In this document: piece by piece, positions 35,763 to 59,785 of the stretch | Position numbering within the stretch: the first letter of the stretch is position 1 | How the letters are laid out: every line of letters begins with the position of its first letter | Virus record (IMG/VR): IMGVR_UViG_3300032247_001667 | DNA: 64,000 nucleotides | Source of the DNA: an uncultured virus (IMG/VR IMGVR_UViG_3300032247_001667) | Lineage: Duplodnaviria > Heunggongvirae > Uroviricota > Caudoviricetes | Reading direction: 5' to 3' (one strand) | The notes under the pieces: model-generated | The model's input: the letters and a program-made list of their open reading frames with translations, nothing else | What the model was told of the DNA's origin: nothing | Database searches by the model: none | Translations under genes and position numbers: made by a program

Positions 35763-35789
35763 ATTCCTTTTACCTGTTATTAATTACAC
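35763..35789 (-). promoter_or_regulatory. GTGTAA-N8-AGG-N4-AGG element
   Basis: Reverse complement GTGTAA TTAATAAC AGG TAAA AGG AAT ATG. Confidence 0.8.
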
Positions 35790-38700
35790 TCATCTGTAAT
35801 CAGTAAATCCTACTCTGAATACATTTTCTTCAACTAGCATGGTCTTTTCTTGAGTTTGTTCTTGTTGCTTATCGCCATTATCGTCTTCTTTTACTCCGCT
35901 TTCTTTTGGCTCTGCTCCAGAAATTGGACATCCAGAAGGAATCCATAATTCTATGTATCCACTTCCACATATTTTACTGAATTTTCCAGCAGTAGGAACA
36001 CATACAATTGTTGCTCCATTTCCTGTTTGGAATTGTTTGTTTCCAGATTCAATTTGATCTATTAAATTAGAAAGATCGCCACTAGTTGTCGTTGCCCCGC
36101 TTGGAACAATTCTATTTCCAGTTGTTGCGCTTATTGGTACAGTTATTTCTCTTGTAACTTTTGTATTATTAATTGCTGCGTAATTTATAGTTCCACCAGC
36201 GGTATTATAGCTTGTTGATAAAATATTTACTGGTTGAACATCTTCACTTGACACAACTTTATTCCAATTTACTCCATCATTTGAACCTTGAAGCTCAATT
36301 GTTTTTGGTACTAAGTAAGAAGTAATAACTGCTCTTGGACCAAATGTTATAAAAATTTGATGTTCTCCTAATCTACCACTTTGCAAACTAGTTAAACTAA
36401 TTGTTGATTCATCATTTAGTGCTGCAGATAGTAATGGCCCATAACTATATGATGGATACTTAGCGTATAACATCGGTAACCAAGTATAAATTCCAGTCGA
36501 ATTAAATTTTAAATTTATCTTATCTACTAATTCAGAAGTTGTAAAGAAATATTTATCTCCAGTATTTGTTGTTGAATATATAAATTCAGCATTCACTGGA
36601 GAATGAATTGGATCAAATCCATATATACTTTTATGAACTTGTTCGAAAGGATAAGCGTATTGATTAAATGATATTCTATCTCCATCAATAAAACTACTTA
36701 CATTACTTATTTGACCAGAATAATAGCTATTTGGTCCATAATTGTCTTTTATTGATTTTAAAGTTATTGCATCTAAAAAGTAAAGTCCATATTGTTGATT
36801 AATTGTATTTTCATTAACATTTTTTGGTCTATCAAATAAATTATCTTGATTACATGCTATGAATGTGTCTGTTCCACCGCCTCCTCCCGCTCCAACTCCA
36901 AGTTCTTTTTTACAATCAACTTGTTCTTGACATTGACAGCATAAACTAAATAATTTATCATTCAAAGCTATCCTATAAAATCCTGGATTAGAATTTGTGA
37001 ATATATAATCAACTAATTTTCCATATATTGCATATGGCATTTTAGCTTGAGGAATATCTATAAATGTTTGACTTGGATTATTAGATCTTATTTTAAGAGC
37101 TTGAGAACATATAGCACAACTGAAATCTGCACTACATGGATCTTGTTCGGTTGGATTAGGTTGAATAACTACTTGTTTTGGAGGGCAATAATTTTCTGAT
37201 ATATATTTTTTATATGTCAAATATGGAATTTGATTAGCATTTAAGACTTGTCCAGTTTTAAATGTTTTATAGTCAATTGTAAAAGCTTTAAGTTCATTTT
37301 TATTTGTAGATTCTATTCCACTGGGAGTTGTTATATTATCTAATGTATAAGTTAAACCTAATACTTCATTAATTTGAGTATATATATCTAATTCTGGTTC
37401 ATTTTCTGAAAAGTCTATATTTAGATTAGAAACATTTGTATAAGTGTTTGAACTTATTATTTGATTATTTGAATTATATCCAAAATTAAAAAGCTGTTCA
37501 TCACTTTTAACATTAATTCCATATGCATAATCTTTTTCTAAACCAATATTAAATGGTTGATAATTATTAATATCAAATATTTTTGTAGTAGATAATGAAC
37601 CTGTTATTTGTATTTCATAATCTAAATTATTTACAAGAAAATCTTTTAAGATTTTTAAATCTGTAGTATATTTTGATACTAATGGTAATTGTGTTATTTG
37701 AAATGTATTTGATATTTGAGTAGCTGGATTATAAAATTCATTTCCAGTTTGACTTGCAGTAATAGTAGCTGTTCCAATTGATTTCAGTATAACCAAATTT
37801 CCACTTAAAAAAATTACTCCAGTACTACTTGTGCTATAAGTAATAGGTAAACTTGAACTATTAGTTGCATTTAAATAAAAAGCGCTATCAGTAATAACTT
37901 TATCTAAAATTGTTGGAAAATTAATAGTTTGATCAGCTTTTGTTACATTAACATTTGCATCAGTTAATGAATTAAGATAATATGGAGAACTTGGAATAAA
38001 TGTTACTGGATAATTAAATATCCCTGTATTGTTTGGAATAGTTTGAGGATTACTCCAAGTAAACGTACCAGGAACATCTGCAGCGCCACCAGTTAAATTT
38101 GAATTTGATAAACTTTGATTATATTGAATAGAAGTTCCAATTGGTTTAGTTATAATATTTGGAGTTCCTAAAGTTTCATAAACTGCAACAGGAAGCGGCC
38201 CAACCATTAATTTATTGCCACTATCATTAAAACTTAGGTTTTGACCAAAAGGATTTAATGATGGAAGTGAAAAAGGCCAAAGAGTGTTTCCAGCAGATGG
38301 ATATGGAGTTTCTAAATCATAAAATCCAGTAAATATTTTATTTGCATCTAAACCAGAATAAATTCTTATCCAACCAGGAAACCCTCCTTCATTTGGATAT
38401 GGTGTATTAATATCCGTTTTTGCCGCGCCTGGTTCGACACTAATACCTAGCATATTTCCAGAAGAATTTAAACTTATATTCTTAATAACATAAGGAGTAA
38501 AATTTATTTCTTGATTTATTTTCCAACTTCCAGAAGAAATATTTCCAGTTAAGATGTATATTTTGCTATATCCTGTTCCATTAGCTATCCATTGTGATGA
38601 AGTCGCAGCGATTAAATTTCCTTCTGAATTTATTTTTACATTTGGAGATAGAGATCTATTATTTTGCCATCCTACTCCAGTTATTTTTGCTATTTGATCC

Positions 38701-39572
38701 CAATTTTTACCAGAACCAGTAAATATAAATATTTTACCATTAGATTGTGGAGGAGTATTGACTAAACCAGTTGGCACTGCAGAAGTAGTTAATATATTTC
38801 CTAAATTATTTATAGCTATATTTCTACCAAAAAAAGAATCATTAAGGTCTTGATTTTTAATTTCTTTTGCTAAAGAATAATTAGATATACCTGTAAAAAT
38901 AGAAATGGATCCAGAATAAATATACTCAGGATTTTCACTTGCCTCTTGTCCAATAATAAATGTATCTCCAATTCTAGATATGCCAGCGCTTATTCCAAAA
39001 CCATACGTACCACTACCGCTAAATTGTTGTTTATATATCCATTTTCCATTTTGTTTTTCATAAAGATAAGCTTGACCACCTTTATTAAAAGGTGCAAGAT
39101 ATTGGGATGGCGCACCAATAATTAATTTATTGCCACTATTGATCGCTAAAGATTTACCAAATTCAGGTTCAATAATATTATTTGGGTCAGCAAAATTTCC
39201 ATTTATTCCTGTTATAACTTGAGCATATTGCCACACATCGCCGACACCACTATTAAGTAATGGGTATCCATTTATTTTTGGTGTTCCTGTTGTTCTTTTA
39301 TAAACATATAATATTCCAGTAAAAGCAGTACCAGCAGTAGTGGGATAACCATTCCCCTCTGGTGAAATGGGAATTGGGCCATCATTACATACAAAAGCTT
39401 CATCTCCTTCTCGATTTAATAAGAATTGTGTGCTAAGAATTCCTCCTCTAAATTTTAGCGCATTTGGATATGTGCCATATGGTAAACCTGGACCAGGATC
39501 ACTTTCAAACAATTGCAAATTTTTATTAAGAAAAAATTCCTGACCAGTAAAATCATATCTAACAGAATACAT
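35790..39572 (-). CDS. Large tail/virion protein with FG-GAP-like propeller and Ig/MBG-like domains
   Basis: FGKSLAIN...IIGAP repeats; GGAADVPGTFTW and KADQTINFPTI Ig-like segments. Confidence 0.7.
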   Translation of the reverse strand: MYSVRYDFTGQEFFLNKNLQLFESDPGPGLPYGTYPNALKFRGGILSTQFLLNREGDEAFVCNDGPIPISPEGNGYPTTAGTAFTGILYVYKRTTGTPKINGYPLLNSGVGDVWQYAQVITGINGNFADPNNIIEPEFGKSLAINSGNKLIIGAPSQYLAPFNKGGQAYLYEKQNGKWIYKQQFSGSGTYGFGISAGISRIGDTFIIGQEASENPEYIYSGSISIFTGISNYSLAKEIKNQDLNDSFFGRNIAINNLGNILTTSAVPTGLVNTPPQSNGKIFIFTGSGKNWDQIAKITGVGWQNNRSLSPNVKINSEGNLIAATSSQWIANGTGYSKIYILTGNISSGSWKINQEINFTPYVIKNISLNSSGNMLGISVEPGAAKTDINTPYPNEGGFPGWIRIYSGLDANKIFTGFYDLETPYPSAGNTLWPFSLPSLNPFGQNLSFNDSGNKLMVGPLPVAVYETLGTPNIITKPIGTSIQYNQSLSNSNLTGGAADVPGTFTWSNPQTIPNNTGIFNYPVTFIPSSPYYLNSLTDANVNVTKADQTINFPTILDKVITDSAFYLNATNSSSLPITYSTSSTGVIFLSGNLVILKSIGTATITASQTGNEFYNPATQISNTFQITQLPLVSKYTTDLKILKDFLVNNLDYEIQITGSLSTTKIFDINNYQPFNIGLEKDYAYGINVKSDEQLFNFGYNSNNQIISSNTYTNVSNLNIDFSENEPELDIYTQINEVLGLTYTLDNITTPSGIESTNKNELKAFTIDYKTFKTGQVLNANQIPYLTYKKYISENYCPPKQVVIQPNPTEQDPCSADFSCAICSQALKIRSNNPSQTFIDIPQAKMPYAIYGKLVDYIFTNSNPGFYRIALNDKLFSLCCQCQEQVDCKKELGVGAGGGGGTDTFIACNQDNLFDRPKNVNENTINQQYGLYFLDAITLKSIKDNYGPNSYYSGQISNVSSFIDGDRISFNQYAYPFEQVHKSIYGFDPIHSPVNAEFIYSTTNTGDKYFFTTSELVDKINLKFNSTGIYTWLPMLYAKYPSYSYGPLLSAALNDESTISLTSLQSGRLGEHQIFITFGPRAVITSYLVPKTIELQGSNDGVNWNKVVSSEDVQPVNILSTSYNTAGGTINYAAINNTKVTREITVPISATTGNRIVPSGATTTSGDLSNLIDQIESGNKQFQTGNGATIVCVPTAGKFSKICGSGYIELWIPSGCPISGAEPKESGVKEDDNGDKQQEQTQEKTMLVEENVFRVGFTDYR

Positions 39573-39605: not shown

Positions 39606-39611
39606 TTACAC
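39606..39611 (-). promoter_or_regulatory. GTGTAA element without the AGG doublet
   Basis: Intergenic TTACAC, 33 nt from ATG 39572. Confidence 0.65.
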
Positions 39612-39620
39612 TTTTTCATT

Positions 39621-42600
39621 TTATGTTCCATTTCCATCTATCTTTGGATACTTCAAGTACTCGCCAGTACAATAAGTTCTGTTTGGTGCTTTTAATTCTA
39701 AATTTGATTTCAATGATTTTAATCTATCTTGAGAGACTGCTATTCCAGAAGCTCCAAAATTAAAATCACAAACATTATAAACATTTTGGCTTTTTACATT
39801 TATATTAGATATACTCTTTTGATTTCCACTTATATAACTAATATTTAAATTACTAACTAAAGGTTCCTTTTTAGAATCTTCATAAAATCCACTATTTAAA
39901 ATATAACAATGCATATCCATGTCACAATCATCTATCGCTGTATCAGAATATCCATAAAGATTGCACTCTAATAAAAGAACATGAGGTTGATTTTCTTTTG
40001 GAAGATTATTTAATAATGGAGAACAATCAGTACAATTAGTTTTTGTATTTTTTGTAATATTTTCAGTATAATAAATTGGTGATGTTGCATTAGGATAATA
40101 ATTAGAAATAATATTCCATTTATTGAAAAGATAATAATAAACTTCATTTCTATTTAAATAATTTAAACCACTATCATAAACTAATATCTCAAGAATTGCA
40201 CCATCTAGTCCTTGAGCGTCTCCGCTATAATACATAGATGGCCCAACAGGATAAGTATCAGAGATTACTGATTTTTTTATAAATTTATCATTACTTCCAA
40301 TTAAAAGTTGCCCAAAATTAAATCCAGTAGATCCACTATAAATTAATAAATTATTTACATAATATTCAAATCTTCCAGTATCCATTACAAGATTTCCAAT
40401 TTGACCTCCTTGATAAAAAACTCCGCTATTAACTCTTGCAGGATCACCTATACCAGTAAAATTAAATAATTTTCCAGTATTTAAAGTAGACATATAGAAA
40501 CCACTATTATTATAACTCTGAATAGATCTTTGATTTTGTCCAAAATTTCCAGTTTCAACAAAAAATATAGATATTGGAAGTTTTCCACTATATCCACTAA
40601 TTAACATATTAGAACCATTAGTAAATTTAATAGAAGGAAGAATTTGATTGTCCATTTTTGGCAATAATAAATCATCAAAAGGTTGTGCATTTAAAAAATC
40701 AAAATGATATCCAATTCCAGAAACCTCAAAAGAACCAGAGGCGAGCTTTCCATTTGTTGTTAAATTGGAAATACTCATATCAAAATTAAAAGTTGAATTT
40801 AAATTAGTTACTTCTGTTTTATTTGAAATTTCGATTGATCCAGTTGTATAGTTTGGAACAACAAAAGCTGAAAAATTAACTCCAGGAGTAAATGCATATT
40901 TAATTCCAGTTTTAATTGGATTTACATTTACATTTCCAGTAATTGAATTAAAGTTTAATTGACCTGCTCCCCAATTTGCTATATTATTAGGATTTCCAGA
41001 AAAAGCACAACTATTATTAATACCAGCATTAATCCCAGATATTCCAGTTGGTCCTAAATATTTTGTTATAAATATATTTAATAAATTAACAAAAGAATTT
41101 GAATTTCCACAACCAGTAACTTTACTTGTTTCTAATAAAGCAATTGAAGAATCAAATCCTGCGCTCACTTTAGAAACGCCAGTCAAGTAAATTAAATTAG
41201 ATGTTTTACCATAACCATCATCTCCAAATCCACTTATTGTTTTATTATTCAATAAAATTAAAGAATTATAATAACCAGCACTAATTCCAGAAATATCGGT
41301 TACTCCACTTAATGACTTAGTTTCTCCAAACTCATTAGTTCCCCAACCCGTAACAGTTCTATCTGAGAATAATGCTAAACTATGACTTGCTCCAGCGGAT
41401 ATATCTATAACTCCATATAAATTATTTCCATTAGAAGCTTGTCCATAAGTATCATCTCCAAATCCAACAAGTGTTCCATCTGAGAATAATGCCAAAGCAT
41501 GATTAGTTCCAGCGCTTATTTTAATAATATTATTAAGACTATTTGCGTAAGTATTTTGCCCATAACTATCGTATCCCCATCCCGTGACTTTTCCATTATT
41601 AAGTAAAGCTAAACTAAAATTTTCTCCAGCTGAAACATTTAATACCCCAGTCAGATTATTACCATTAGAAGCTTGTCCATAACCATTAGTTCCCCATCCA
41701 GTTACTCTACCACCACTCAAAACTGCTAAACTATGACCATATCCTGCTGAAATTTGAATTGCACCAGTTAAATTGAAACCTTGAGAAACTTGTCCATAGT
41801 CATCATTTCCCCAGCCAGTTACTTTTCCACTTGTATTTAAAATTCCTAATACATGTCCATATCCAGCAGATATGTCAATAAAACTACTTGCATTTAAACT
41901 TATATTTTTAGTTATATTATGCAATTTAGTTAATTGATTTAAATAATCGTAACCCCAACCAGTAATTATATTTCCACTTTTTAAAACTGCTAAACTGTGA
42001 AATTTTCCTGCACTTATTTCTATTCCACTTGTTAGATTTAATCCTTGAGAAACTTGACCATAATCATCATTTCCCCAACCAGTAATTTTACCACTATTTA
42101 TTAATATAGCTAAATTATGATAAGATCCTGCAGAAATTCCAGATACCCCAGTTAAATTCAAACCTTGAGAAACTTGACCATAATCATCATTTCCCCAACC
42201 AGTAACTTTATTATTTTTTAATAGAGCTATTGCATGTGCTGATCCAGCGCTTACTTTGTTAACTCCAGTCAAATTTAATCCACTTGAAACTTGACCATAA
42301 GTATTATTTCCCCAACCTGTAATTCTATTATTATCTAATAAAGCAAAAGCAAAATCTGGCCCAATTGCCAAATCAATAACTCCAGTTAAAATTCCTACTG
42401 GACTACTATTCCAATCTCCTGTAAAAATATTATTTGAATCATTTAAAGTTATACCAGCTATTCTACCATAAGCATTATTTCCAAATCCAGTTATTTTTTT
42501 ATTTTTTAATAATGCTAAAACGTATTCTTTTTGATATTGTTGACTCTCAAAAGAATATTCAATAAATTGTTGATTTAATTGTAATTCTCCAGTTCTTGAA

Positions 42601-45600
42601 TGACTACAAGAATATATTTTTTCAATATTGTTTGATATTTTATAGAAATTAATTAGATCATTATCTGTAAATGCTTGATTATTATAATATAAAACTCCAT
42701 GATTTTGTCCAGTTAGATAATTTGTATTTAAATTATATTGATAAGTATAAGTTGTGCTATCTCCAGAAGTAAATATTTTTAATGTATTGTTATTTAAAAT
42801 TTCAGCAAGTAATTGGTAATTTCCACTACTATTGGCATTTATTGAATCCCTTAAACCAGTAATTCCACTAAAAAATCCAACTCCAGTTAATGTATTTGAG
42901 TAATTAAATGTAGATGTATTATTTAACGTTAAAAAATCTCCATTTTTAAGATTATTTAATTTTAAAATTCCAGAAAAAGGTTTAATATTAATCAAAGAAA
43001 ATCCAGTATTTGAATAAAAAGAAATGGCGTCGCCACTATTGTAAAAATTATTATATCCTGGGCCAAAATTAACTTTATTTTTCCAAAAAATTAAATTATT
43101 ATCACTAGATATAGCAGATAGACTATCCATAGCATCTAATTGAATTTTAATATTTGGTATATTGTAAGAAGATGGTAGACCTTCATTAGTATATGGTTGA
43201 GGTGGACATGTTTTATCGTATGATGATATATAATAAGTACCAACATATGGTTGATTATATGAAATATCCCCAATCGCACCAATAGCTTTAATATTTCCGC
43301 TGTAATTCATAGCCGTACTCCATCCGAAGTATTGTCCAGAAGTTAAATTAGTATTTTGACCATATTTTCTCCAATTAGTTCCACTTCCAGTATAAATATA
43401 AATTATACCAACTCCAGAAATACCATAAACATTTGCATTGTAAGCCCCAATAACTGCCTGATTACCAATTCCATTCAAACTAACAGATGAACCAAAATAA
43501 TCATTAGGCAATCCATCAAATGTGGTAAGTTTTGCTGTTTGAATCCAACTATTTCCGCTCCCAGTGAATACATAAGCTGCTCCAGAATAACCACTGACTC
43601 CAGGAGCTCCAACTAAAGCTATATTTCCTAAGCTATTTATACTAACACTTGTTCCAAATCTATCTCCAGATTTTATATCGGTAGAAGTAATTCTAGCAGT
43701 TTGATTCCAAGTGTTCCTTGAACCAGTAAAAATAAAAGCTGAACCAGAGGTATAATCTGAATTTGGAGATCCTATAATAATTGTATTTCCTACGGTATTT
43801 ACATCAATTGAAGCACCAAAAAGATCTCCAGATTTTCTATTATTAACTCCAGTAAGTTTTATAACTTGAGTCCAATTACTTTGAGTTCCAGTAAATATAT
43901 AAGCTGCTCCAGAACCATTATTTGCTCCAACTGCGCCAACTACTGTTAAATTTCCCAATCCATTTAAACTTACAGAAGAGCCAAAGTAATCATTAAATTG
44001 ATTATTTCCACTTCCAGTTATTTTGACTGCTTGATTTAGTCCAGTTCCATAACCAGTAAAAATATAAACTGCTCCAGCGCCAGTAATATTATTTATTTTT
44101 GAGTTTGAAGCACCAATGCAAACTATATTTCCTACATCATTTATAGATGAACTAGAACCAAATTGATCTCCAGATCCAATTCCTTGACCAGTAATTTTAG
44201 CTATTGCGTACCAATTATTACCTTGTCCACTTAATAAATAGGCTCTTCCTGCACCAGATATATTATTTTCTGTAGTATTTATTGCAGTAGCAACTGCTAT
44301 ATCACCTAAACCATTTAAAGCAACACTATAACCCAAATAAGAATAAGCTGAAATTGGATCATCCAAACTGGTTCTAGGTGTTTCAACTAATCTAATTTGT
44401 ACTGGTCTTCTTGGAATTAAATAATAATTATTACATATATCATAATATTTAAGATATTGTTCTGAAATTTCCTCTACCTCTGGAAGATAATTATTTGAAG
44501 ATACTTTATATTCGTAAGGTTCTATTCCAGAAATTAAAGCAGAATAAATTTTATTTGAATAATTTTTTAATGAAAGACTTCTTGATCCTAAAATTTCATC
44601 TATATTTACTAAACTAGTAGCAGCAATTTTATCACATTCTAAATTTGGAACATATTTATAACTTGTTATATCTTGTCCAGATTTGTTTATATCAAGAGTA
44701 TTATAATATTCATTATCTACAAATGGAATTAATTTTTTAGAATTTAAATTTAGTGTCCTAAATAGTAATGGCAAATAATTCTCATCTCTAAAATAAGAAT
44801 TATCTTCTGTAGATTTTGATATAGAAAAACATCCATTAAAAATTTCATCATTTGTTATAAAACTTACAAAGTCTTTTGTAGAAAGATCATTTACTGGTAT
44901 TCTTTCAGAATTTGCTAATATATCTGGATTTGTATCAATAAGACTATACGGGTTATAATTTAAATTTATTGTAAAACTTTTTAACTCATAAGATGGAGAA
45001 TCACAATTAGTTTCATTTATTATATTTTCATTAATTGTTAAATTTGCTGAATCAACGCATCCATAACAACCTTTTAGCAAATATCCTTTACCAAAAAAAT
45101 TACTATTGCTATTAAAACCAGTTTGATTTACATTTCCACTATATTCATAATTAAATTTATTAATTAATGTAATTAAATCTTGCGGATTAGACCATTCATT
45201 ATTATTTAGATCAGCTTGAGAAGTACTAGTTGTATATTTAAAAGATGGAATTGGATATGAACCACCAGCTATCGTCCAAGGATCAGGGGAAGGATTATAG
45301 CCATAATAATTAGAATGTATATTTTTATAAGTAACATCACCAGCTTCTCCTGCGGAATAATCAAAAAGATTCCATGATGTCCCATTAAAAGATATTATAC
45401 CATTTGCACCTCGAAAATTATTATTAGGAGATGATCTTGTATAAATTCCATTAGAAGTTGCTGTACCTGCGCCTTCAACAATTATTTGACTAACGTATGT
45501 ATTATATATAAATTTTAAATTATTACCAAAATAATTAATAATACCACTTGGATTAGAAGGGCATATATTTATATTTTCATAAGCAGCTTTTAATTTTTCA

Positions 45601-45872
45601 TAATTAACAGTTATAGTGTCAGTTCTACTTGGTAATGTATATACTTTACTTGTACTTTTAGGATCAACTCTATCAAAGATTGGCTCTAAATAATTAATAA
45701 ATGATATTTTACCAGTTTTTGGCAAATGAAGAAAATCAATATAATATGGGTTATTAAATCTATTAAACTCTATTTCGCTTAATGTAACAGGAGGGAAAAA
45801 ATATTGATTACCACTATAATAAGCGCCAAATTGTAAAGACCATATCTTATATTTTTTATAATAATTTTCCAT
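39621..45872 (-). CDS. 2083-aa adhesin-like tail protein: FG-GAP propeller, RCC1 repeats and interrupted LamG-like domain
   Basis: DxFGSSVSLNxxGN...VGA...GAAYIFTG repeats; many VTGWG RCC1 repeats; C-terminal EILVYDSGL...YLFNKW. Confidence 0.8.
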   Translation of the reverse strand: MENYYKKYKIWSLQFGAYYSGNQYFFPPVTLSEIEFNRFNNPYYIDFLHLPKTGKISFINYLEPIFDRVDPKSTSKVYTLPSRTDTITVNYEKLKAAYENINICPSNPSGIINYFGNNLKFIYNTYVSQIIVEGAGTATSNGIYTRSSPNNNFRGANGIISFNGTSWNLFDYSAGEAGDVTYKNIHSNYYGYNPSPDPWTIAGGSYPIPSFKYTTSTSQADLNNNEWSNPQDLITLINKFNYEYSGNVNQTGFNSNSNFFGKGYLLKGCYGCVDSANLTINENIINETNCDSPSYELKSFTINLNYNPYSLIDTNPDILANSERIPVNDLSTKDFVSFITNDEIFNGCFSISKSTEDNSYFRDENYLPLLFRTLNLNSKKLIPFVDNEYYNTLDINKSGQDITSYKYVPNLECDKIAATSLVNIDEILGSRSLSLKNYSNKIYSALISGIEPYEYKVSSNNYLPEVEEISEQYLKYYDICNNYYLIPRRPVQIRLVETPRTSLDDPISAYSYLGYSVALNGLGDIAVATAINTTENNISGAGRAYLLSGQGNNWYAIAKITGQGIGSGDQFGSSSSINDVGNIVCIGASNSKINNITGAGAVYIFTGYGTGLNQAVKITGSGNNQFNDYFGSSVSLNGLGNLTVVGAVGANNGSGAAYIFTGTQSNWTQVIKLTGVNNRKSGDLFGASIDVNTVGNTIIIGSPNSDYTSGSAFIFTGSRNTWNQTARITSTDIKSGDRFGTSVSINSLGNIALVGAPGVSGYSGAAYVFTGSGNSWIQTAKLTTFDGLPNDYFGSSVSLNGIGNQAVIGAYNANVYGISGVGIIYIYTGSGTNWRKYGQNTNLTSGQYFGWSTAMNYSGNIKAIGAIGDISYNQPYVGTYYISSYDKTCPPQPYTNEGLPSSYNIPNIKIQLDAMDSLSAISSDNNLIFWKNKVNFGPGYNNFYNSGDAISFYSNTGFSLINIKPFSGILKLNNLKNGDFLTLNNTSTFNYSNTLTGVGFFSGITGLRDSINANSSGNYQLLAEILNNNTLKIFTSGDSTTYTYQYNLNTNYLTGQNHGVLYYNNQAFTDNDLINFYKISNNIEKIYSCSHSRTGELQLNQQFIEYSFESQQYQKEYVLALLKNKKITGFGNNAYGRIAGITLNDSNNIFTGDWNSSPVGILTGVIDLAIGPDFAFALLDNNRITGWGNNTYGQVSSGLNLTGVNKVSAGSAHAIALLKNNKVTGWGNDDYGQVSQGLNLTGVSGISAGSYHNLAILINSGKITGWGNDDYGQVSQGLNLTSGIEISAGKFHSLAVLKSGNIITGWGYDYLNQLTKLHNITKNISLNASSFIDISAGYGHVLGILNTSGKVTGWGNDDYGQVSQGFNLTGAIQISAGYGHSLAVLSGGRVTGWGTNGYGQASNGNNLTGVLNVSAGENFSLALLNNGKVTGWGYDSYGQNTYANSLNNIIKISAGTNHALALFSDGTLVGFGDDTYGQASNGNNLYGVIDISAGASHSLALFSDRTVTGWGTNEFGETKSLSGVTDISGISAGYYNSLILLNNKTISGFGDDGYGKTSNLIYLTGVSKVSAGFDSSIALLETSKVTGCGNSNSFVNLLNIFITKYLGPTGISGINAGINNSCAFSGNPNNIANWGAGQLNFNSITGNVNVNPIKTGIKYAFTPGVNFSAFVVPNYTTGSIEISNKTEVTNLNSTFNFDMSISNLTTNGKLASGSFEVSGIGYHFDFLNAQPFDDLLLPKMDNQILPSIKFTNGSNMLISGYSGKLPISIFFVETGNFGQNQRSIQSYNNSGFYMSTLNTGKLFNFTGIGDPARVNSGVFYQGGQIGNLVMDTGRFEYYVNNLLIYSGSTGFNFGQLLIGSNDKFIKKSVISDTYPVGPSMYYSGDAQGLDGAILEILVYDSGLNYLNRNEVYYYLFNKWNIISNYYPNATSPIYYTENITKNTKTNCTDCSPLLNNLPKENQPHVLLLECNLYGYSDTAIDDCDMDMHCYILNSGFYEDSKKEPLVSNLNISYISGNQKSISNINVKSQNVYNVCDFNFGASGIAVSQDRLKSLKSNLELKAPNRTYCTGEYLKYPKIDGNGT
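42043..42205. repeat. Exact 43-bp direct repeat (42043-42085 and 42163-42205) within the RCC1 repeats
   Basis: ccttgagaaacttgaccataatcatcatttccccaaccagtaa twice at 120-bp period; a diverged third copy starts near 41779. Confidence 0.85.
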
Positions 45873-45899
45873 TTGCCTTATACCTTAATATTATTACAC
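45873..45899 (-). promoter_or_regulatory. GTGTAA-N8-AGG-N4-AGG element
   Basis: Reverse complement GTGTAA TAATATTA AGG TATA AGG CAA ATG. Confidence 0.8.
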
Positions 45900-47588: not shown

Positions 47589-47620
47589 ATTAATACCTTA
47601 TTCCTTTATAAAAATTACAC
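47589..47620 (-). promoter_or_regulatory. GTGTAA-N9-AGG-N4-AGG element
   Basis: Reverse complement GTGTAA TTTTTATAA AGG AATA AGG TATTAAT ATG. Confidence 0.8.
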
Positions 47621-47626: not shown

Positions 47627-49963
47627 TTATCCAAAAAATGGTCTAGTAGATTCTGGAGCCCAACTATAAGTTGCTCCTGCTTCTAGAATAATATTTTGTG
47701 GAGCATTATTTGGAGTATAAGTTCCTTTTCCTCCAGCTTGACCTACTCCACCTCCGCTGCCAGATCCTCCACCTCCATTACCACCACATAAAATACTAGC
47801 AGCACCCTCTCCTCCACAACAAGTTTGTGGAGTAACTCCTCCAGTATTTAATTTTCCTGCTGGAATTCCTGCTCCAGGACCACCTTCTCCACATAACCCT
47901 CCTTTATCTCCACCAACCCCTCCACCTCCTCCGATGACTCCATAATTTTCAATAATTAAAGTTACTCCAGCTCTAATAATAATAGCTTCTGTTCGTGATG
48001 AATTTGCTGCTTCAAATCCACAATATCCTTGTCCTCTTCCAGCTAATACTCCACCATTTGGATTACATCCTGCTCCATTTAGTGGGCCAACCACTAAACG
48101 TACTGTGACTCCAGCTGGCCATGTTCCAGTATCTAATGAAGGATTGTTATTTACTCCAGCGTTTGCGCTTCCAACATTTCCATATATATAAAATGTTACT
48201 TTACTTCCAGCTTCAACCGTTGGAGCAAGAGATCTTAAATTAACGTTAGTAACAGTTTGTCCAATATTACAAATAATATATTCATAATTACAAGATCCAT
48301 AAATTGGACAGTTATTATCATCGTACCCAATAATATCTTTATTCACTCCTTTGCTTGGTCCTGTTACTGTCGCGGCAGGATATCCACAACCTTGAGCATA
48401 CAATGCACTCAATCCGAATCCAGAATCTGGATGAAGAAAAGTAAAACGACTAGGATTATCTATAGCTGTAATTGTCCATGATCCATTCCCTTGACTATAA
48501 TTACAACTTGGTCTTCTTAATCCAGTTATAACCACAAGATCTCCAGTTGAATATCCATGAGGAAGAATTGTTCCAATAACTACTGGATTTGGTGGATTTA
48601 ATCTATCTACAGCAGGTAAAGTAATAATTCCAGTTATTACAAGTGCTCCAGCGCAATTTCCAGGATCTGCACAAGGAGAGCAATAATAATTTGGACAATT
48701 ATTAGAATCAACTCCACTAGCAACAGGATAACCATTTGTGCAATTTGGAGCGGATGAACATGGAGAGCATATATATGTTGGACATCCTAAAGAGTCATAA
48801 CCATTAATTTTTTGATAATAATTTTCTCCACAATTTAAATTTTGCACTGTACATCCACCTTGTCCAGTTTGTAAACATGCAGAATTAGCTTGGCCATAAG
48901 TATTATCCCCCCAACCAGTAACGTTTCCATTATCTAATAAACCTATTCCATGTTGATATCCTGCGCTTACTTTTGTAACACCAGTCAAATTATTTCCAGC
49001 AGAAGCTTGATTATAAGTATTATCACCCCAGCCAGTAGTTCTTTTATTTGCTAGTAATGCTAAACTATGAAATCCACCAGCACTAATCGCTCTTACTCCA
49101 GTCAAATTATTTCCAAAACTTGCTTGACCATAATCATTATTTCCCCATCCAGTAACTTTTAAGTTATCAAGTAAGGCTAAACTATGATAAGCTCCAGCGC
49201 TAATATCAATAACTCCTGTTAAATTATTTCCACCTAAAGCTTGAGAAAAAGTATTGTTTCCCCACCCCGTAACTTTTTTATTAGCAAGTAAAGCTAAACT
49301 ATGACCACTACCAGCAGAAACCGCAATAACACCAGTAAGATTATTTCCGCCAAAAGCTTTATTAAAATCATTATTTCCCCAACCTGTCATTGTTAAATTA
49401 GTAAAAACTGCTAAATTATGATCATATCCTGCGCTAATACCAGATATACCAGTTAAATTATTTCCATTTATAGCTTGACCACTATTATTATATCCCCATC
49501 CATAAACTTTATTATAAGCAGTTATATTTTGTGTTGTATAAATATTATATCCAGTATTGGCTGAACCAAAAACATAATTATTACCAGTATTTGATTTATA
49601 ATAACCACTTAGTATATTGTTTAAATTTATATTAACAGCTTGACCACTAGGATATCTAGATCCAGTAATTTTTAAAGATGAGTTATTAATTGAATTTGGT
49701 ATGTTTAAATTAATATCATTATTTTCGACTACTTGTATTTGTACTATTTTGTATATATTTTCAGTTTGATTTTTTGCAAAAAATACAGAACTTTTTGTTT
49801 GTTGTTTTATTGGAGTTCCATATATATAACCATCTGGTTTATATATTGTCATGCCATCTGGAAGATTAACTGCATCATATCCAGTAACATAACCAATCGA
49901 ATTTATCTTAAAATAAGAAAATTGATCTTTGATTAGATTATGTTTAGAATTTAATATGTTCAT
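47627..49963 (-). CDS. RCC1-repeat protein with Cys-rich repeats and Gly-rich (gp38-like) C-terminus; candidate receptor-binding protein
   Basis: RCC1 repeats; DxxxCPxYxC repeats; IIENYGVIGGGGGVGG; ATG 49963 overlaps the upstream TGA (ATGA). Confidence 0.7.
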   Translation of the reverse strand: MNILNSKHNLIKDQFSYFKINSIGYVTGYDAVNLPDGMTIYKPDGYIYGTPIKQQTKSSVFFAKNQTENIYKIVQIQVVENNDINLNIPNSINNSSLKITGSRYPSGQAVNINLNNILSGYYKSNTGNNYVFGSANTGYNIYTTQNITAYNKVYGWGYNNSGQAINGNNLTGISGISAGYDHNLAVFTNLTMTGWGNNDFNKAFGGNNLTGVIAVSAGSGHSLALLANKKVTGWGNNTFSQALGGNNLTGVIDISAGAYHSLALLDNLKVTGWGNNDYGQASFGNNLTGVRAISAGGFHSLALLANKRTTGWGDNTYNQASAGNNLTGVTKVSAGYQHGIGLLDNGNVTGWGDNTYGQANSACLQTGQGGCTVQNLNCGENYYQKINGYDSLGCPTYICSPCSSAPNCTNGYPVASGVDSNNCPNYYCSPCADPGNCAGALVITGIITLPAVDRLNPPNPVVIGTILPHGYSTGDLVVITGLRRPSCNYSQGNGSWTITAIDNPSRFTFLHPDSGFGLSALYAQGCGYPAATVTGPSKGVNKDIIGYDDNNCPIYGSCNYEYIICNIGQTVTNVNLRSLAPTVEAGSKVTFYIYGNVGSANAGVNNNPSLDTGTWPAGVTVRLVVGPLNGAGCNPNGGVLAGRGQGYCGFEAANSSRTEAIIIRAGVTLIIENYGVIGGGGGVGGDKGGLCGEGGPGAGIPAGKLNTGGVTPQTCCGGEGAASILCGGNGGGGSGSGGGVGQAGGKGTYTPNNAPQNIILEAGATYSWAPESTRPFFG

Positions 49964-51021
49964 AGTTGAAATGAGATAGGAATTATACCTTGACCAACAC
50001 ATATATTCTTAAATGTTTCATTACCAGGTGTGCCATCAACTGTAAACTCTTGACGAGCTATTGTTAATTGAGCTATTCCTTCGTGACATCCACCATTTAA
50101 ATTACATTTAATATAAAGATATGCTGTACAATCTTCTCTTAATTTAATAGGCTGATATGTGTCGCCATTTACAGTTACATCTTCTACAAGCCAATCTCTC
50201 ATCGCCATAAAAAGAGTGCTTCGTTGTACTGGAAAATAATTTCCAACTCTATCGCCTCCATCTGAACCATTATTAAGATTAAAAGTACCAAGCCAATTTA
50301 CACATTTTTCAATACCTGCAGTGTCGTTAGTTTGGATAGCTGTAAGAGCTTCTTTTGTTTGTGGAATAGCGAAACCAAATTTAAATACAGCTCTGTCACA
50401 ATTATGTCCTCCACCACAAGGTCCATTATTTAAATATTGGAATCGAAGTGATAAGCTATCATTTAAATCACATAGACATTTTTTGCAACCTTCTTTTTCA
50501 GCATAAGCGACATTCAGATCATCATAAACTTCCCAAGATATCCATGCTGGATCATTTCCAAAACCTTTTGTGCCACGGTGCCATCCTCCGTTTGGACCAT
50601 AATAACCTCTTAAGCGATAATCTTTATATAACGGCTGTTTTGGTCCAATAAAATTAGGACTTTCTGCAAAAAATGGCGTTGCTAGTTCTTTATCATGCGC
50701 TGTTGCTTCTTCAGACGTTTTTGCTTCGTATCTAGTTTCGCAATCCCAAGAAAATATTTTCGTTTGATTGTACTCTTCTGGACAAACATTTTTTAAATCA
50801 TAATTTCTCTTTGGTTTTTTATCTTCGCTTGGACATTTACATTCACAATTTATAACATCAGAAGGAAGTCTTTGCGTTGGCGTATTTCCTGCTCCACGAA
50901 TTGATATTTCTAATATTTCTGCTTGAGGATCCATCCAACTAGTTACAGCAGAACATGTTTCTAGCACTACTTCAAATTCTACTGAGCTTGGAGTTGATAT
51001 TATATTATCTGGTAGTATCAT
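49960..51021 (-). CDS. Cys-rich hypothetical protein
   Basis: 353-aa ORF with CECKC, CKKCLC, CGGGHNC. Confidence 0.7.
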   Translation of the reverse strand: MILPDNIISTPSSVEFEVVLETCSAVTSWMDPQAEILEISIRGAGNTPTQRLPSDVINCECKCPSEDKKPKRNYDLKNVCPEEYNQTKIFSWDCETRYEAKTSEEATAHDKELATPFFAESPNFIGPKQPLYKDYRLRGYYGPNGGWHRGTKGFGNDPAWISWEVYDDLNVAYAEKEGCKKCLCDLNDSLSLRFQYLNNGPCGGGHNCDRAVFKFGFAIPQTKEALTAIQTNDTAGIEKCVNWLGTFNLNNGSDGGDRVGNYFPVQRSTLFMAMRDWLVEDVTVNGDTYQPIKLREDCTAYLYIKCNLNGGCHEGIAQLTIARQEFTVDGTPGNETFKNICVGQGIIPISFQL

Positions 51022-51052
51022 GAATGTTCCTTTTTCCTATTTTAAATTACAC
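51022..51052 (-). promoter_or_regulatory. GTGTAA-N8-AGG-N4-AGG element
   Basis: Reverse complement GTGTAA TTTAAAAT AGG AAAA AGG AACATTC ATG. Confidence 0.8.
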
Positions 51053-54768: not shown

Positions 54769-57617
54769 TAGTTTATTGTTGTTGGTGTTTCTGGCGCACG
54801 TTGTTGAGTTTGATTATAAGCAAATCCTGCTCGTAATATATCTAAACTTAAAGGTTCAGCAAAACTATTTCCAAATGATATAGAACAAACTCCGCCCTCT
54901 GAACTATATGTATAATTTAATTCCTCTAAACCAAGATTTAAAGCTGTTCTTAGATCAATATCAGGTATTCCTTTTAATTTAAAACTTAATTTTTTACGAT
55001 TCTCTAATATACTATGTGTTTGTCTTAAATTATATTCCTCGTGAATTCTTTTTAAAGTTGCTTCATTTGGATAACAAGTTGATGATAAAGCTTCAAAATC
55101 ATTATCTGTTATATTGAGATAATTTAATTCAAATTTTGAAGTATTTTGATTAAATGTATTTGGAAGATTAGATTGAATGCTTTGTATTTTTCCAAGTTCT
55201 TTAGATTGATTAAATTTTTGAGTAACTAAAATTCTAAATGCTGGATCTCTATTTTTAATATAATCATCACAGGGATTATCGTTATTTTTATCTCCTTCTT
55301 GTGGCTCTTCTCCAATTAGTGATAATGGTGGAGCAAAAATTTTAAATGTTTTATCAATTGTTAATGTACTACAAGTTTTATCTATTAAACCAGGAATAGT
55401 ATTTTTATCTGTTGCTGCATTTGGACTTACTTCTTTTCCTAATCTTTCAGTTGGATGTTGAGCCTTATTATACTCCCATTTATGATCGAAAAATCCAGGA
55501 ATCATAGCATATAATTTAATATTTCCTGGTAATGGATCTACTGAGCCGTCAGTAGTTGTTGCTGTAACATTTGTTTTCAATACTTCATCAAGTTCTGGTG
55601 GATAAGCTACTGCTCCAACTCCACCACCTCCTTCAGTTCCATATTCAGATAAAGCATAATTCTTATATTTTTCAAAAACACTTTTATAAGTTTCTGTATT
55701 ATCTGGTTTTGGTGACCATTGAGGTTCTCTATCTACAATAAGAACACTTGGACCAAAATATGGTTTTTTTTGTGTATCCAGCGGTGGTTCTTTTGGTTGT
55801 TCATTTGTTTCTAAATTTTTAAATGGACTAACTGGTGGATTATTAGTTTGAGCGCCTTTACCTTTATCATCAAGTAGATTTCCTTCTTTATATGGATAAA
55901 CTAAGCATCCAAGATATCCAGCTGGATCATATGGATATTTTTGAAATGGAAGATTGTTAACATCGTACCCTCTTCCAATCATATCAACTGAAGCTCCATC
56001 TCCTCCAAAAAGATCTGTATTTTGCCTTATGGTTGCTGCATCACCAGTTATTCCGCAAAGCTTAACAAAACCTTCTCTTACGTAAAACCTTCCAAAAGAT
56101 TCAAATACTTTCTTTTCAAAATCTATTCTTTTATCATATAATTCTTTTTCATGATAAGCAATTACATAATATCCTTTATTTTTAATGAATTGATTTCTTG
56201 TAATATCATCTGAAATTCTGCTAGTTAAATAATCATATTGTTGACAAGCTAATTTCTCTTCTGTGCTTAATTTTTCTATAGCTGCAGGTGTTAAATTTCC
56301 AGTATTTTCAATAACTTGAATAATTGTTAAATTTCCCATCTCTGGTATTTTTTTATCAATTCCTTCAAAAAATCCAGTGCTTCTATTTGCTGATCCTTTT
56401 CCTAACTCAAATTTTTGCTTCATGTTTCTAGCTTGAGTAGAATCAGTAATACCATAAATATATCTCATCCAAAAAGCCTCTCTCATTTCTTCTGAATATG
56501 TAGCTAAAATTGCAGAAGTAGTATCATCTCTCCAATCTATTTTAACAGTTCCTAATGCAGCTCTACTTTGCCTTTTTCTTGCTCCCTGTATATCAAAATC
56601 AGAAACAGTTGGCAAAACAACAGATTGACTTTTTTCACATGCATAAGGTTTTGTTTGACCATTTCTTTCATAAAGAGATATAGATCCATAAGAAACAGTA
56701 TTCTCCATAGATTCTTCGATATCTTTAGATAATATTTTTATATTTGAATTATCTACTATAGCATTAATTGCACTTTCATTTAATTTAACATCTGCTGTTA
56801 AATCTTTAAAAAATAATTTATTTGCTACTGGATCAAAAATTGCAGCAAGTTTTAAATCTCCGCACCATTGATCTAATACTTGTTTTAAAGTTCCCGTGTA
56901 ACTTTTTAAGAATTTTTTAATTTTATCTTCTGGTAGATCTGGTTTTTCTACTGTTAAATTTATGCCAGCGTTCCCAACGATAGCAGTTATTCCATCTAAT
57001 AATTCAAAAAATGTATAAGCTACATCAAAAACTTTTTGATAGCTTAATTTATCGCATTTATCTTCTTTACTATATTTATCAGTTGGACAATTTGGGCAAG
57101 GATCACATGGATCTATTGCTGTATTTAATTCGTTATAATTTAATTCTCCATCTTTATTAACATCACAAGGATGAAGTTCTCTTCCAAGAATTATGAAATT
57201 ATTATCTATCGTATAAGGTTGATAATAGTTAGCTATTTTTCTACCACGTTTAGTTTTTATGTTTTTATTTGGAATAGCCCAAAATTTTTTAATTAAACCA
57301 ACGTAAATTTTCTCTAAAATAAAACTACCATCTATAAATTCTATTTCTAATATCTTACCTTGAGATGATTCTTTTTTGCTATATTTAATAGGATACATAT
57401 TTAAATTAATAGTTCCTATTTTAATTTGACTTGGTTGCAGTACAGTTAATACTGGAGTTGAATAAACTCCATCTTCATTTATAACACTTACTGATAATCT
57501 AGAAGGTTCTTTGCCTATGCTTGGTTGAAAATTTACATCATAAATATAGCCTCTTAGGTATTTATTACTACCATTAACTGTAACAGTATCTATTGTTTTA
57601 TAGACTGAGACTGACAT
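54768..57617 (-). CDS. Probable baseplate hub/tail-associated protein
   Basis: Position downstream of the tape-measure region; YTGTLKQVLDQWCGDL resembles hub proteins. Confidence 0.5.
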   Translation of the reverse strand: MSVSVYKTIDTVTVNGSNKYLRGYIYDVNFQPSIGKEPSRLSVSVINEDGVYSTPVLTVLQPSQIKIGTINLNMYPIKYSKKESSQGKILEIEFIDGSFILEKIYVGLIKKFWAIPNKNIKTKRGRKIANYYQPYTIDNNFIILGRELHPCDVNKDGELNYNELNTAIDPCDPCPNCPTDKYSKEDKCDKLSYQKVFDVAYTFFELLDGITAIVGNAGINLTVEKPDLPEDKIKKFLKSYTGTLKQVLDQWCGDLKLAAIFDPVANKLFFKDLTADVKLNESAINAIVDNSNIKILSKDIEESMENTVSYGSISLYERNGQTKPYACEKSQSVVLPTVSDFDIQGARKRQSRAALGTVKIDWRDDTTSAILATYSEEMREAFWMRYIYGITDSTQARNMKQKFELGKGSANRSTGFFEGIDKKIPEMGNLTIIQVIENTGNLTPAAIEKLSTEEKLACQQYDYLTSRISDDITRNQFIKNKGYYVIAYHEKELYDKRIDFEKKVFESFGRFYVREGFVKLCGITGDAATIRQNTDLFGGDGASVDMIGRGYDVNNLPFQKYPYDPAGYLGCLVYPYKEGNLLDDKGKGAQTNNPPVSPFKNLETNEQPKEPPLDTQKKPYFGPSVLIVDREPQWSPKPDNTETYKSVFEKYKNYALSEYGTEGGGGVGAVAYPPELDEVLKTNVTATTTDGSVDPLPGNIKLYAMIPGFFDHKWEYNKAQHPTERLGKEVSPNAATDKNTIPGLIDKTCSTLTIDKTFKIFAPPLSLIGEEPQEGDKNNDNPCDDYIKNRDPAFRILVTQKFNQSKELGKIQSIQSNLPNTFNQNTSKFELNYLNITDNDFEALSSTCYPNEATLKRIHEEYNLRQTHSILENRKKLSFKLKGIPDIDLRTALNLGLEELNYTYSSEGGVCSISFGNSFAEPLSLDILRAGFAYNQTQQRAPETPTTIN

Positions 57618-59752
57618 TATTTATTAACCTCCAAAGCACTATCTGTATTATATATATTTTTACCCTTATTCTCTAAGAATAAAGGGTCATTTATAAGATC
57701 AAATCTTGACTTTTCAATAAATTCATTAGAGTCTTGTTTTACTCCATTTAGGTATACTGCTGATGTATTTTTAGCATACAATCTTGGTAAAGTATAAGAG
57801 TATACATTTCCTGTTAATAGTATATAATTTAATACAGAATTATAAGCTGTTATATTTCCAGTAGTAGATACGCTTGTATTACCAATATTAGTATAGCTAT
57901 TAGATCCACTTTGAATATAATTAATTCCGCTTATTAGTTTTTGACCATTTAAATATAAAAAGTCTTTTTTACCAGTTAATATTATATTTCCGCCAGTATA
58001 ACTATAAAATAAGAATCCAGTTTTATTAAAATCTAATAGAATAGTATCTAAACTATCATAGTTTCCAGAAACATTGGCTATATTATCTATTTTATAATCA
58101 AATATGTTAGCATAATCATTATAATCAATATTATATACGCCGTTATTTGATACATTTGAAATGTTTTGATTTTCTAAGATTCTAAATCTTCTATTTCCAA
58201 CATTAAATTCTGCTGGTTGATTTAAAATAGGAGAATAAGTTGGATTAAATTCAAAAGTATAAACTTCTACAATATCTTTACTGTCTAAAACTCTATTATA
58301 AATTATTTGATTGATACCAATTGAATTTAAATATCCTGTATTTTTAATTAAAGAAGTTCCTCGGTTTATTGTTAAGTTAGAGGTTTTAGATATAAATGCG
58401 CCAGTAATATATTGATTTGTGAATGTTATATTTTCTACCTTCGTTAAATAAGAACCATTATTTTGTATTGTAAAATTATAAATATAGTTTCCAGTAACAA
58501 CAGATGAAGTGAAGTTTGCTCCTACGTTTCCACTAAATGGAAAATTAATTAATTGAGTAAAATTACTATTTGTTATACTTTCAATTCCAGTCTCTAATCC
58601 AGTAAGATAATTTATTCCAGTAATAGCATAACCAGAAAGAACACCAGTTAATCCAGATATAAAAGTTAATGGGATTCCAGTACCACATATATTTACTATT
58701 TCTCCAGCATTTATGTTTACTGTACCAGTTAATCCTGTGCCAGAAATTTGTAATTCATAACCAGTAACAGAACCAGTTATAATTACGTTTGAAAAGAATC
58801 TAGTTACAGTATTTGTATAGTTAAATGATTGAGATGTGTATCCAGTAAAGAATCCAGTAGCTACATGATTAGAACCAACTATATTTCCAGTAATACTTCC
58901 ACTAAGTTGACCTAAATAATCATAAAAAGAATAACTATTTAAACAAGTAAAACTAATTCCAGTAGAACTATCAAATATAGCGCCAGTTAAATTATTAGTC
59001 AATCCAGAATAACTATACAATTCATCAATAGTCGAGAATGTTATTGTTTTATTAATATCATAAATAAATCCATCAGCAAGATCATTTAAATAAGTAGAAT
59101 TTAAAGACTCTTGCAAGAAAATAAATTCATTCATCTTACCTATATAGTTCTTTCCGCTAAAGAATGGCAAAATTTTTCCAGAACCAAGAGTTAAATGATT
59201 AAAATTATTTCTATCTGTTTGAATTGCAAAACTTTCAAATAAGAACTTTTCTGTTGCTGGATCATAAATGTTTATGTTGACGTTACTTAAATTTTTATTA
59301 ACTGATACTATTCCAGCTGTATTTGCTTTTGCATTGGTTATATGAGTTGTTGGGCCATAAATACTATCGTAATATTCATAATAATAATTGTTAAAACTAG
59401 TAATACCAAAGTTAAATCCAGAGTAAATATTTGATCCAGCAGTATCTAATGTAGAGAATAAGACTGCTTGACCACTTCCAGTCTTTTCATAAGCACAATA
59501 AACTGTAAAAAAATCATTTTTTAAGCCAGTAGCATTTTGAATAACAATAGCATTCTTGCCAGTAAAATCTAAACCAGTACTATTAATTAGTAATCCAGAA
59601 TAATTACCAGAAAATACTGAATTATTTTTAAGGTAATAACTAGATCCAGTTTTAATATTACTATTAGTAAAAGTATAATTAAGAATATAATTATTAAGAT
59701 TCAACCCTAGTTGATCTGCATAATAATCAAAGCTATTAGATATCTGTGCCAT
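57617..59752 (-). CDS. (S/T)G-rich virion protein with N-terminal LamG-like domain
   Basis: LTLGSG...YIGKMNEFIFL; C-terminal LYLNGQKL and VYLNGVKQ repeats. Confidence 0.65.
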   Translation of the reverse strand: MAQISNSFDYYADQLGLNLNNYILNYTFTNSNIKTGSSYYLKNNSVFSGNYSGLLINSTGLDFTGKNAIVIQNATGLKNDFFTVYCAYEKTGSGQAVLFSTLDTAGSNIYSGFNFGITSFNNYYYEYYDSIYGPTTHITNAKANTAGIVSVNKNLSNVNINIYDPATEKFLFESFAIQTDRNNFNHLTLGSGKILPFFSGKNYIGKMNEFIFLQESLNSTYLNDLADGFIYDINKTITFSTIDELYSYSGLTNNLTGAIFDSSTGISFTCLNSYSFYDYLGQLSGSITGNIVGSNHVATGFFTGYTSQSFNYTNTVTRFFSNVIITGSVTGYELQISGTGLTGTVNINAGEIVNICGTGIPLTFISGLTGVLSGYAITGINYLTGLETGIESITNSNFTQLINFPFSGNVGANFTSSVVTGNYIYNFTIQNNGSYLTKVENITFTNQYITGAFISKTSNLTINRGTSLIKNTGYLNSIGINQIIYNRVLDSKDIVEVYTFEFNPTYSPILNQPAEFNVGNRRFRILENQNISNVSNNGVYNIDYNDYANIFDYKIDNIANVSGNYDSLDTILLDFNKTGFLFYSYTGGNIILTGKKDFLYLNGQKLISGINYIQSGSNSYTNIGNTSVSTTGNITAYNSVLNYILLTGNVYSYTLPRLYAKNTSAVYLNGVKQDSNEFIEKSRFDLINDPLFLENKGKNIYNTDSALEVNK

Positions 59753-59785
59753 TTCCTTTATCCTTTTGCCTTCATAATATTACAC
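59753..59785 (-). promoter_or_regulatory. GTGTAA-N8-(AGG-N4)x2-AGG element
   Basis: Reverse complement GTGTAA TATTATGA AGG CAAA AGG ATAA AGG AA ATG. Confidence 0.8.

Follow-up and report, generated by a model that had tools for sequence, protein, structure and literature searches.

In phage T4 the small protein RegA, a homodimer, competes with the ribosome at the unstructured initiation regions of about 30 mRNAs, and residues on an exposed helix read the RNA (PMC3014915; PMC accessions here and below refer to excerpts of the articles). Here we analyze a short array of AGG triplets located in the leaders of tail genes on a stretch of 64,000 nucleotides (nt) from the uncultured virus IMGVR_UViG_3300032247_001667 (Caudoviricetes), the whole of which is called the window. 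Behind a GTGTAA box the array AGG-N4-AGG marks gene starts of the tail module in a large family of uncultured aquatic phages, both freshwater and marine. The system shares with RegA the unstructured initiation regions and a candidate binding protein that is small, phage-encoded and, here by modelling, a homodimer (PMC3014915). In the excerpts of literature searched, in which subscription journals are mostly not covered, we found no description of the AGG motif or of a tail-specific translational repressor in phages.

Results

AGG arrays behind GTGTAA boxes in the window

GTGTAA occurs 18 times in the window, 7 times on the plus strand and 11 times on the minus strand. Seven of the minus strand boxes fall into the region 35763-59785; six of these precede gene starts and one (50303), which the original prediction had not counted, lies inside a 353-amino acid (aa) open reading frame (ORF). 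As predicted, five of the six gene-start boxes are followed by AGG-N4-AGG. The distance from the box to the first AGG is nearly constant (8, 8, 9, 8 and 8 nt), while the distance from the last AGG to the ATG varies (2, 7, 7, 3 and 3 nt). Overall AGGN4AGG is not enriched in the window (10 observed, 11.75 expected); all 6 copies on the minus strand fall into the five array leaders, and a post-hoc binomial estimate for 5 of 18 boxes carrying an array amounts to about 2e-15. The boxes and arrays of this region are:

59780..59785, minus strand: putative promoter box GTGTAA, directly behind the stop codon of the upstream gene
59755..59771, minus strand: three-copy array AGG CAAA AGG ATAA AGG, 2 nt from the ATG of the 711-aa tail-module gene 57617-59752
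51047..51052, minus strand: GTGTAA box
51029..51038, minus strand: AGG AAAA AGG, 7 nt from the ATG of the 353-aa gene 49960-51021
47615..47620, minus strand: GTGTAA box with a 9-nt spacer
47596..47605, minus strand: AGG AATA AGG, 7 nt from the ATG of the 562-aa RCC1-repeat gene 45900-47588
45894..45899, minus strand: GTGTAA box, directly behind the upstream stop codon
45876..45885, minus strand: AGG TATA AGG, 3 nt from the ATG of the 2083-aa RCC1/FG-GAP repeat gene 39621-45872
39606..39611, minus strand: GTGTAA box without an AGG array (the exception), 33 nt to the ATG of the 1260-aa gene 35790-39572
35784..35789, minus strand: GTGTAA box, directly behind the upstream stop codon
35766..35775, minus strand: AGG TAAA AGG, 3 nt from the ATG of the 841-aa RCC1-repeat gene 33237-35762

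The 711-aa gene is homologous to tail-module genes of relatives. For the 353-aa gene neither a family nor a relative was found in searches for both, and in the searches made the tail genes of the window itself had no close relatives. Also in agreement with the prediction, the first AGG takes the position held by the start codon behind the following boxes on the plus strand:

151..156, plus strand: leaderless GTGTAA box, ATG 8 nt on, gene 165-431
431..436, plus strand: leaderless GTGTAA box, ATG 8 nt on, gene 445-1167
2386..2391, plus strand: GTGTAA box, in-frame ATG 8 nt on (2400)
18352..18357, plus strand: GTGTAA box, GTG start 9 nt on, gene 18367-18651

A minus strand box at 2255-2260 is followed after 12 nt by the ATG of a 24-codon hydrophobic ORF beginning at 2242. 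Host-type promoters also appear to yield leaderless messages: upstream of 26940, 30576 and 18696 on the plus strand TTGAC(A/T)-N17-TATCAT promoters lie 6–9 nt from the ATG, and in the genome tiles described below host-type promoters precede 73 leaderless and 18 leadered genes.

The array is conserved in related phages

Relatives are plentiful in IMG/VR: 300 stretches match the UvsX of the window, and the pattern GTGTAAT-N7/8-AGGNAWAAGG was found in at least 123 stretches. Most of its distinct contexts run into an ORF starting with ATG, at loci of about 27–44% G+C; a minority are chance matches. Of 20 records reached, 16 were read as separate tiles, 11 of them chosen by the motif and 5 (G004, G005, G010, G011, G020) by UvsX homology. 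Genes in the tiles were called with a simple ORF rule, which places some starts wrongly. The DnaE proteins of these records share 34–94% identity among themselves and 38–85% with the DnaE of the window; for phages in GenBank the identity to the latter is about 32% or less. Eight loci of the family in metagenome-assembled genomes carry eight different labels, i.e. the host assignment is scattered.

The array seen in the window is conserved in these relatives. Among 2740 genes examined, 158 had GTGTAA within 12 nt ahead of the start and 130 had a longer leader. Arrays were present in 51 of the 130 longer GTGTAA leaders, compared to 59 of 2452 box-less genes, for which 49 correspond to background. 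Together with 45 further leaders of a small gene introduced below, taken from loci retrieved by homology, the 51 leaders from tiles and window make up a set of 96, from which L358 had been removed on account of a mis-called start. In this larger set the spacing to the box, and not the spacing to the ATG, is the tighter one; the reverse, which would have refuted the original prediction, was not seen. The first GG is located 7–10 nt behind the box in 92 of the 96 leaders (standard deviation 1.31), whereas the distance from the last GG to the start ranges from 0 to 15 nt (standard deviation 2.91; Levene p = 6e-8); when the small gene is excluded (n = 42) the deviations are 1.72 and 2.75 (p = 0.016), and both p-values overstate independence because the records are related, which weakens the case to that extent.

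The claim that the array is anchored to GTGTAA thus holds for the spacing and fails as an exclusive rule, since arrays also stand behind TATAAT-type or variant boxes and at starts internal to operons. When considering all loci, 36 box-less arrays are located within 15 nt of an ATG, 30 of them ahead of tail-module genes, and no GTGTAA- or TATAAT-like hexamer was found at 16 of these 30. A promoter-like hexamer is present at 17 of the 36, in excess of a background of about 12%, which indicates that some box-less arrays belong to variant promoters. Because box-less starts carry copies too, the array belongs to translation starts and not to GTGTAA alone. In record G007, which has few GTGTAA gene starts, the box variants GGGTAA and GGTTAA (L266:9069, L267:2880-4901, L267:15889-16173) keep the same distance to AGG arrays, and a sigma factor with shifted specificity is possible. 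Near the motif match in L010, L016, L023, L033 and L046 we noticed back-to-back TTACAC...GTGTAA boxes, a divergent promoter pair lying between the gpM-like gene and its neighbour.

A period of 7 nt, as described for the window, accounts for 91 of 155 GG-to-GG intervals; 41 are 10–12 nt and 5 are 8–9 nt long, so the period is the commonest but not the general one. The base behind AGG is T in 123, A in 84, C in 21 and G in 6 of 234 copies, and the first unit sometimes reads TGG or CGG. In 210 array leaders, a set including motif-picked loci, 460 AGG copies face 5 inverted CCT. Folding is weaker than -1 kcal/mol in 87 of the 96 leaders, which are essentially unstructured. T at position 8 and A at position 9 past the box were found in 115 and 155 of 210 array promoters and in 121 and 150 of 225 leaderless ones; we read them as the probable -1/+1 step of transcription. 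Upstream of this presumed +1 no clear continuation of the array is seen (10 of 210 versus 7 of 365, p = 0.07). A protein with a sigma-70 region 2 (E 7e-5) is among the core genes.

The first AGG does not serve as an in-frame start, as its distance to the ATG falls in all frames. An intramolecular G-quadruplex was likewise rejected, 48 of the 96 leaders having just two GG, and so was inheritance of the leader through duplication of RCC1 genes: non-RCC1 genes carry the array, and orthologues gain or lose box and array jointly.

Arrays are confined to the tail module

In 13 records and the window, the array is present at 39 of the 47 box promoters with a leader that belong to the tail module following the tube gene, compared to 1 of 59 elsewhere (G001, G003 and G016, in which the module is rearranged or unanchored, are left out of the module counts). 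The direction is the same in each of the 13 records, and the five records picked by UvsX homology alone give 11 of 15 inside versus 0 of 22 outside. At box-less starts the fractions are 10 of 232 inside and 6 of 1635 outside the module. On the gene maps arrays begin at the gene after the tube gene and continue until the tail module ends; ahead of portal, protease, capsid, neck or tube genes they are hardly ever seen. The genes led by arrays encode tail proteins similar to lambda gpM (PF05939), gpL (PF05100) and gpI (phrog_32), fibre-like proteins and a protein of 1,700–4,200 aa taken as the tape measure. We are highly confident that the array is a real, module-specific control signal. Outside the tail module arrays were noticed at a 129-aa core gene (L266:9069-9458) and a sulfotransferase-family gene (L262:987-1631), which are possible extra targets.

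The array differs from the Shine-Dalgarno sequence of the family

Clear Shine-Dalgarno (SD) sequences had been described as scarce at other genes, which does not hold for the family: across 2186 box-less genes AGG/GGAG peaks 6–13 nt ahead of the ATG, and ordinary SD sequences are used at some genes. Genes for major capsid, decoration and tube proteins, labelled by position and size and with no firm family match, have just one AGG in 18 of 35 cases, and 15 of these 18 take the form AGGAG, compared to 3 of 234 array copies. Among the 234 copies 61 end within 4 nt of the start and 80 lie more than 13 nt away. With two to four copies, a spacing anchored to the box and a form other than AGGAG, the array is not the ordinary SD sequence of the phage.

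A small helical-hairpin protein is the candidate binder

A small core gene with a product of 71–128 aa has the tube gene on one side and, on the other, two genes whose position suggests tail chaperones; it frequently lies behind a terminator-like U tract and a box of its own. In relatives it lies about 2 kb upstream of the start of the tape-measure gene, which places it beyond the end of the window. When the 74 gene groups found in 6 or more of 17 records are compared, it alone is near-universally led by the array (12 of 13). When loci were retrieved by protein homology, the array was present in 55 of 63 distinct leaders of the small gene, versus 0 of 59 leaders of the tube gene, 0 of 59, 0 of 60, 0 of 56 and 0 of 49 of neck-region genes and 0 of 60 of the second chaperone gene. 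Three or more AGG copies were found in 40 of 54 small-gene leaders and in 8 of 42 others (tiles only: 8 of 9, p = 2e-5). The array is retained behind TATAAT-like promoters (L249, L309, L394, and also G005 and G013, two of the nearest records of the window). All 10 of the searched records of 130–214 kb with at least 90% completeness have the small gene; the four complete records lacking it are 37–57 kb long, and for three of them (L034, L060, L112) no ATG gene follows the motif match.

In the small-gene leaders of L334, L342 and L344-L346 the extended -10-like sequence TGGTATAAT is nested behind GTGTAA with two AGG still downstream, possibly a dual promoter. In a sub-clade with L012 (6570-8598), L036 (14029-15720), G003, L399 and L402 the small gene and both chaperone-like genes stand inverted with respect to the neck and tube genes, and two of these records lose the array.

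The protein family is unnamed and comprises 777 proteins with 660 representatives at 50% identity. It is modelled as a two-helix hairpin with neither a strand nor a helix-turn-helix (predicted local distance difference test, pLDDT, 88). Among 150 representatives sharing less than 50% identity R46 is conserved in 100%, K47 in 93%, D51 in 91%, N54 in 96%, R58 in 96% and K22 in 91%. The homodimer model scores 0.63, with 0.02 for the best control, and at least 75% of the contacts are shared between runs, with a pLDDT of 77 or more; of 30 solved pairs 20 attain the score mark applied, of 23 single chains 1. This modelling supports a homodimer. None of the near-invariant polar residues belongs to those placed in the interface with confidence, which suggests two outward binding grooves per predicted dimer, fitting a two-unit site. 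Weak matches of the protein (sub-threshold in Pfam; a PDB coiled coil, E 0.006; Foldseek E 0.49, to helices of ribosome recycling factor, and E 0.15) were set aside as generic hairpin likeness, and an Atlas search gave no usable match.

Other features of the window

The window has a G+C content of 29% and reads as a piece of a tailed phage of large size. Its plus strand carries sugar-modifying genes and those for UvsX, DnaB, ThyX, a primase and a DnaE-type polymerase; on the minus strand lie long genes with RCC1/FG-GAP repeats and part of a tape-measure gene:

63035..64000, minus strand: probable tape-measure gene, 3' piece (PHROG tape-measure match, E 8e-5)

In the excerpt of PMC4611503, RCC1 appears solely as a strain name. 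A big cluster of glycosyltransferases, methyltransferases and nucleotide-sugar enzymes occupies 4049-16484 and 27493-30554 on the plus strand; two core glycosyltransferases occur in 17 of 17 records. At 22717-26895 on the plus strand the DnaE-type polymerase is split into separate genes for a PHP domain, a 3'-5' exonuclease, a 73-aa product and the catalytic part, a layout shared by relatives.

Discussion

From the same late promoters tailed phages obtain tape-measure and tip proteins in a few copies and subunits of capsid and tube by the hundreds, a difference usually ascribed to fixed ribosome-binding strengths. We propose that GTGTAA is the late-promoter box of these phages, with transcription beginning 8–9 nt behind it. 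The 5' end of tail-module messages would be formed by an (A)GG-N4-AGG pair that is unstructured, frequently comes with more copies and ends 0–15 nt from the start codon. This pair would act as an RNA operator over the ribosome-binding region and would be bound by a two-site protein, most likely a homodimer of the small helical-hairpin protein encoded right behind the tube gene. The bound protein would block ribosome entry and thereby limit its own synthesis and cap the amounts of the tape-measure protein and of tail-tip and fibre proteins; repression would spare the genes for head, neck and tube. We prefer repression over activation because the array overlaps the start region. Action at the RNA level is favoured by the single orientation, the lack of a clear reach upstream of +1, the unfolded leaders and the box-less copies near the ATG. 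The putative operator in the leader of the small gene itself overlaps the initiation region, as expected for an autogenous repressor, with L012 and L036 as exceptions.

From the sequence evidence we assign a probability of roughly 0.45 to the array being an RNA operator bound by the small protein, an autogenous translational repressor limiting tail-protein output. That the array is a protein-bound RNA operator of some kind is probable, and given such an operator the small protein is its likely binder. Somewhat more tentatively, a new family of small hairpin dimers would read tandem AGG in single-stranded RNA through a 10-nt operator and autoregulate a tail-assembly regulon in a freshwater and marine clade.

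Several observations weigh against this proposal. The small gene is absent from the window itself, and its product has no family or RNA-binder fold match in PHROG, Pfam, PDB or the fold search; its median net charge is -1. In L012 and L036 the small gene lacks an array though the tape-measure gene has one, and the small-gene leader of L070 has one AGG only. As the small gene heads the chaperone operon, position alone could account for its constant array, and co-occurrence of gene and array would be shown by any core gene. Internal tail genes are mostly without an array (10 of 232), which fits a per-transcript signal better than a per-gene one. Nor do coding sense strands show a depletion of the motif (24 observed, 27.1 +/- 5.2 expected).

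The original prediction left the choice between tandem mini-SD sites and the binding site of a translational regulator. The regulator has gained from the module specificity and a candidate protein; the mini-SD sites have lost ground, though 82 of 96 leaders hold one AGG 5–13 nt from the start, i.e. in the SD range, which also counts against an operator. Together with the use of SD sequences in the family and the end of every array within 15 nt of the start, this would suit a weak, redundant SD sequence (the 3' end of the 16S rRNA pairing to AAAGG or AGGU) in a minimal leader that keeps tail-protein translation low with no trans factor. Yet one copy at most fits the SD range; no explanation is offered for a further copy at the constant distance of 7 nt, for the 61 of 234 copies 0–4 nt from the ATG or for the 14 of 96 leaders with no AGG in range. 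First units can read TGG or CGG, and confinement to a single module with extra copies on one gene would not be expected; we consider such a weak SD sequence unlikely. An element of the DNA over +1 to +25, either a repressor operator (one that the small protein might itself bind) or an initially transcribed sequence defining a tail sub-class of late promoters, is in line with the fixed position of the first GG relative to the box, with the array at 39 of 47 promoter-proximal but 10 of 232 internal tail starts, with the hexamers at 17 of 36 box-less arrays (background about 12%) and with the later intervals of 10–12 nt, about one helical turn; the omega protein binds heptad arrays as DNA (PMC3130281). 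Omega heptads occur in both orientations (PMC3130281), whereas here 460 copies face 5; 16 of 30 box-less tail arrays lack a hexamer, arrays always end near a start codon, and the hairpin model has no strand or helix-turn-helix. We regard a DNA element as decidedly unlikely.

There is even less to be said for an array that sets the lifetime of the mRNA from its 5' end, through protection by a bound protein or as a nuclease target, which we hold to be very unlikely. The array begins at the presumed +1, and T4 RegB cuts GGAG in initiation regions (PMC3014915), but internal copies exist, the candidate has no nuclease fold or family match, and coding regions do not avoid the motif. The binder could also be a host protein such as CsrA/RsmA or another core protein of the phage, the small gene being merely a target: several further core genes have no family, and the small gene heads the chaperone operon and lacks its array in L012 and L036. 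Against such a binder stand the requirement of CsrA for GGA (PMC4347634), read by just 84 of 234 copies, and the lack of any CsrA, S1, KH or bS21 match in 49 scanned core proteins; we think it improbable to a similar degree.

A short signal spread over a whole module, together with a named candidate regulator, makes feedback control of tail-protein amounts testable. If the proposed repressor is real, RNA-binding proteins would gain a new family, along with a repressor-operator pair of very small size; should the candidate protein turn out to be the wrong one, the motif still flags gene starts of the tail module in a poorly annotated phage clade.

When comparing the small protein with known folds by Foldseek, entry 3k79, which we take to be the ColE1 Rop/Rom fold, appeared at rank 45 and was not significant (E 4.0, template modelling score 0.48, no sequence match). 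As modelled, the candidate is a helix-turn-helix hairpin of a size similar to Rop, and a homodimer. Rop binds RNA at kissing loops and without sequence specificity. With the (NAG)9-11 sites of TRAP the array shares single-stranded triplet repeats, non-conserved spacers and the blocked ribosome-binding sites of a small gene set (PMC4347634). TRAP sites have 9–11 units and 2-nt spacers (PMC4347634), whereas here 2–5 AGG units follow each other with a period of 7 or 10–12 nt and no ring protein was found. The omega heptads of pSM19035 have the 7-base period and the several copies in common with the array; they are DNA sites in mixed orientation with a ribbon-helix-helix reader (PMC3130281), in contrast to the single orientation beside start codons found here. 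The sites of RegA have a high A+U content, take in the AUG, contain no repeat and belong to early and middle genes (PMC3014915), whereas the AGG pair is a discrete one and precedes late tail genes. Beta sheets are present in RegA, which binds RNA in monomeric form (PMC3014915), while the candidate is an all-helical hairpin without sequence similarity, and a search for the RegA family or fold in PHROG, Pfam and PDB gave no match to it. CsrA/RsmA provides a purine motif that is short and SD-like, several sites per leader, competition with the ribosome and a site in the regulator's own 5' untranslated region (PMC4347634). Its GGA is invariant and presented in hairpin loops (PMC4347634); here GGA makes up 84 of 234 copies, the leaders are unstructured and the candidate is helical, and no CsrA-family Pfam match was found for the small protein or among the 49 core proteins. 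The array system would thus resemble RegA and CsrA in its mode of action while belonging to neither family.

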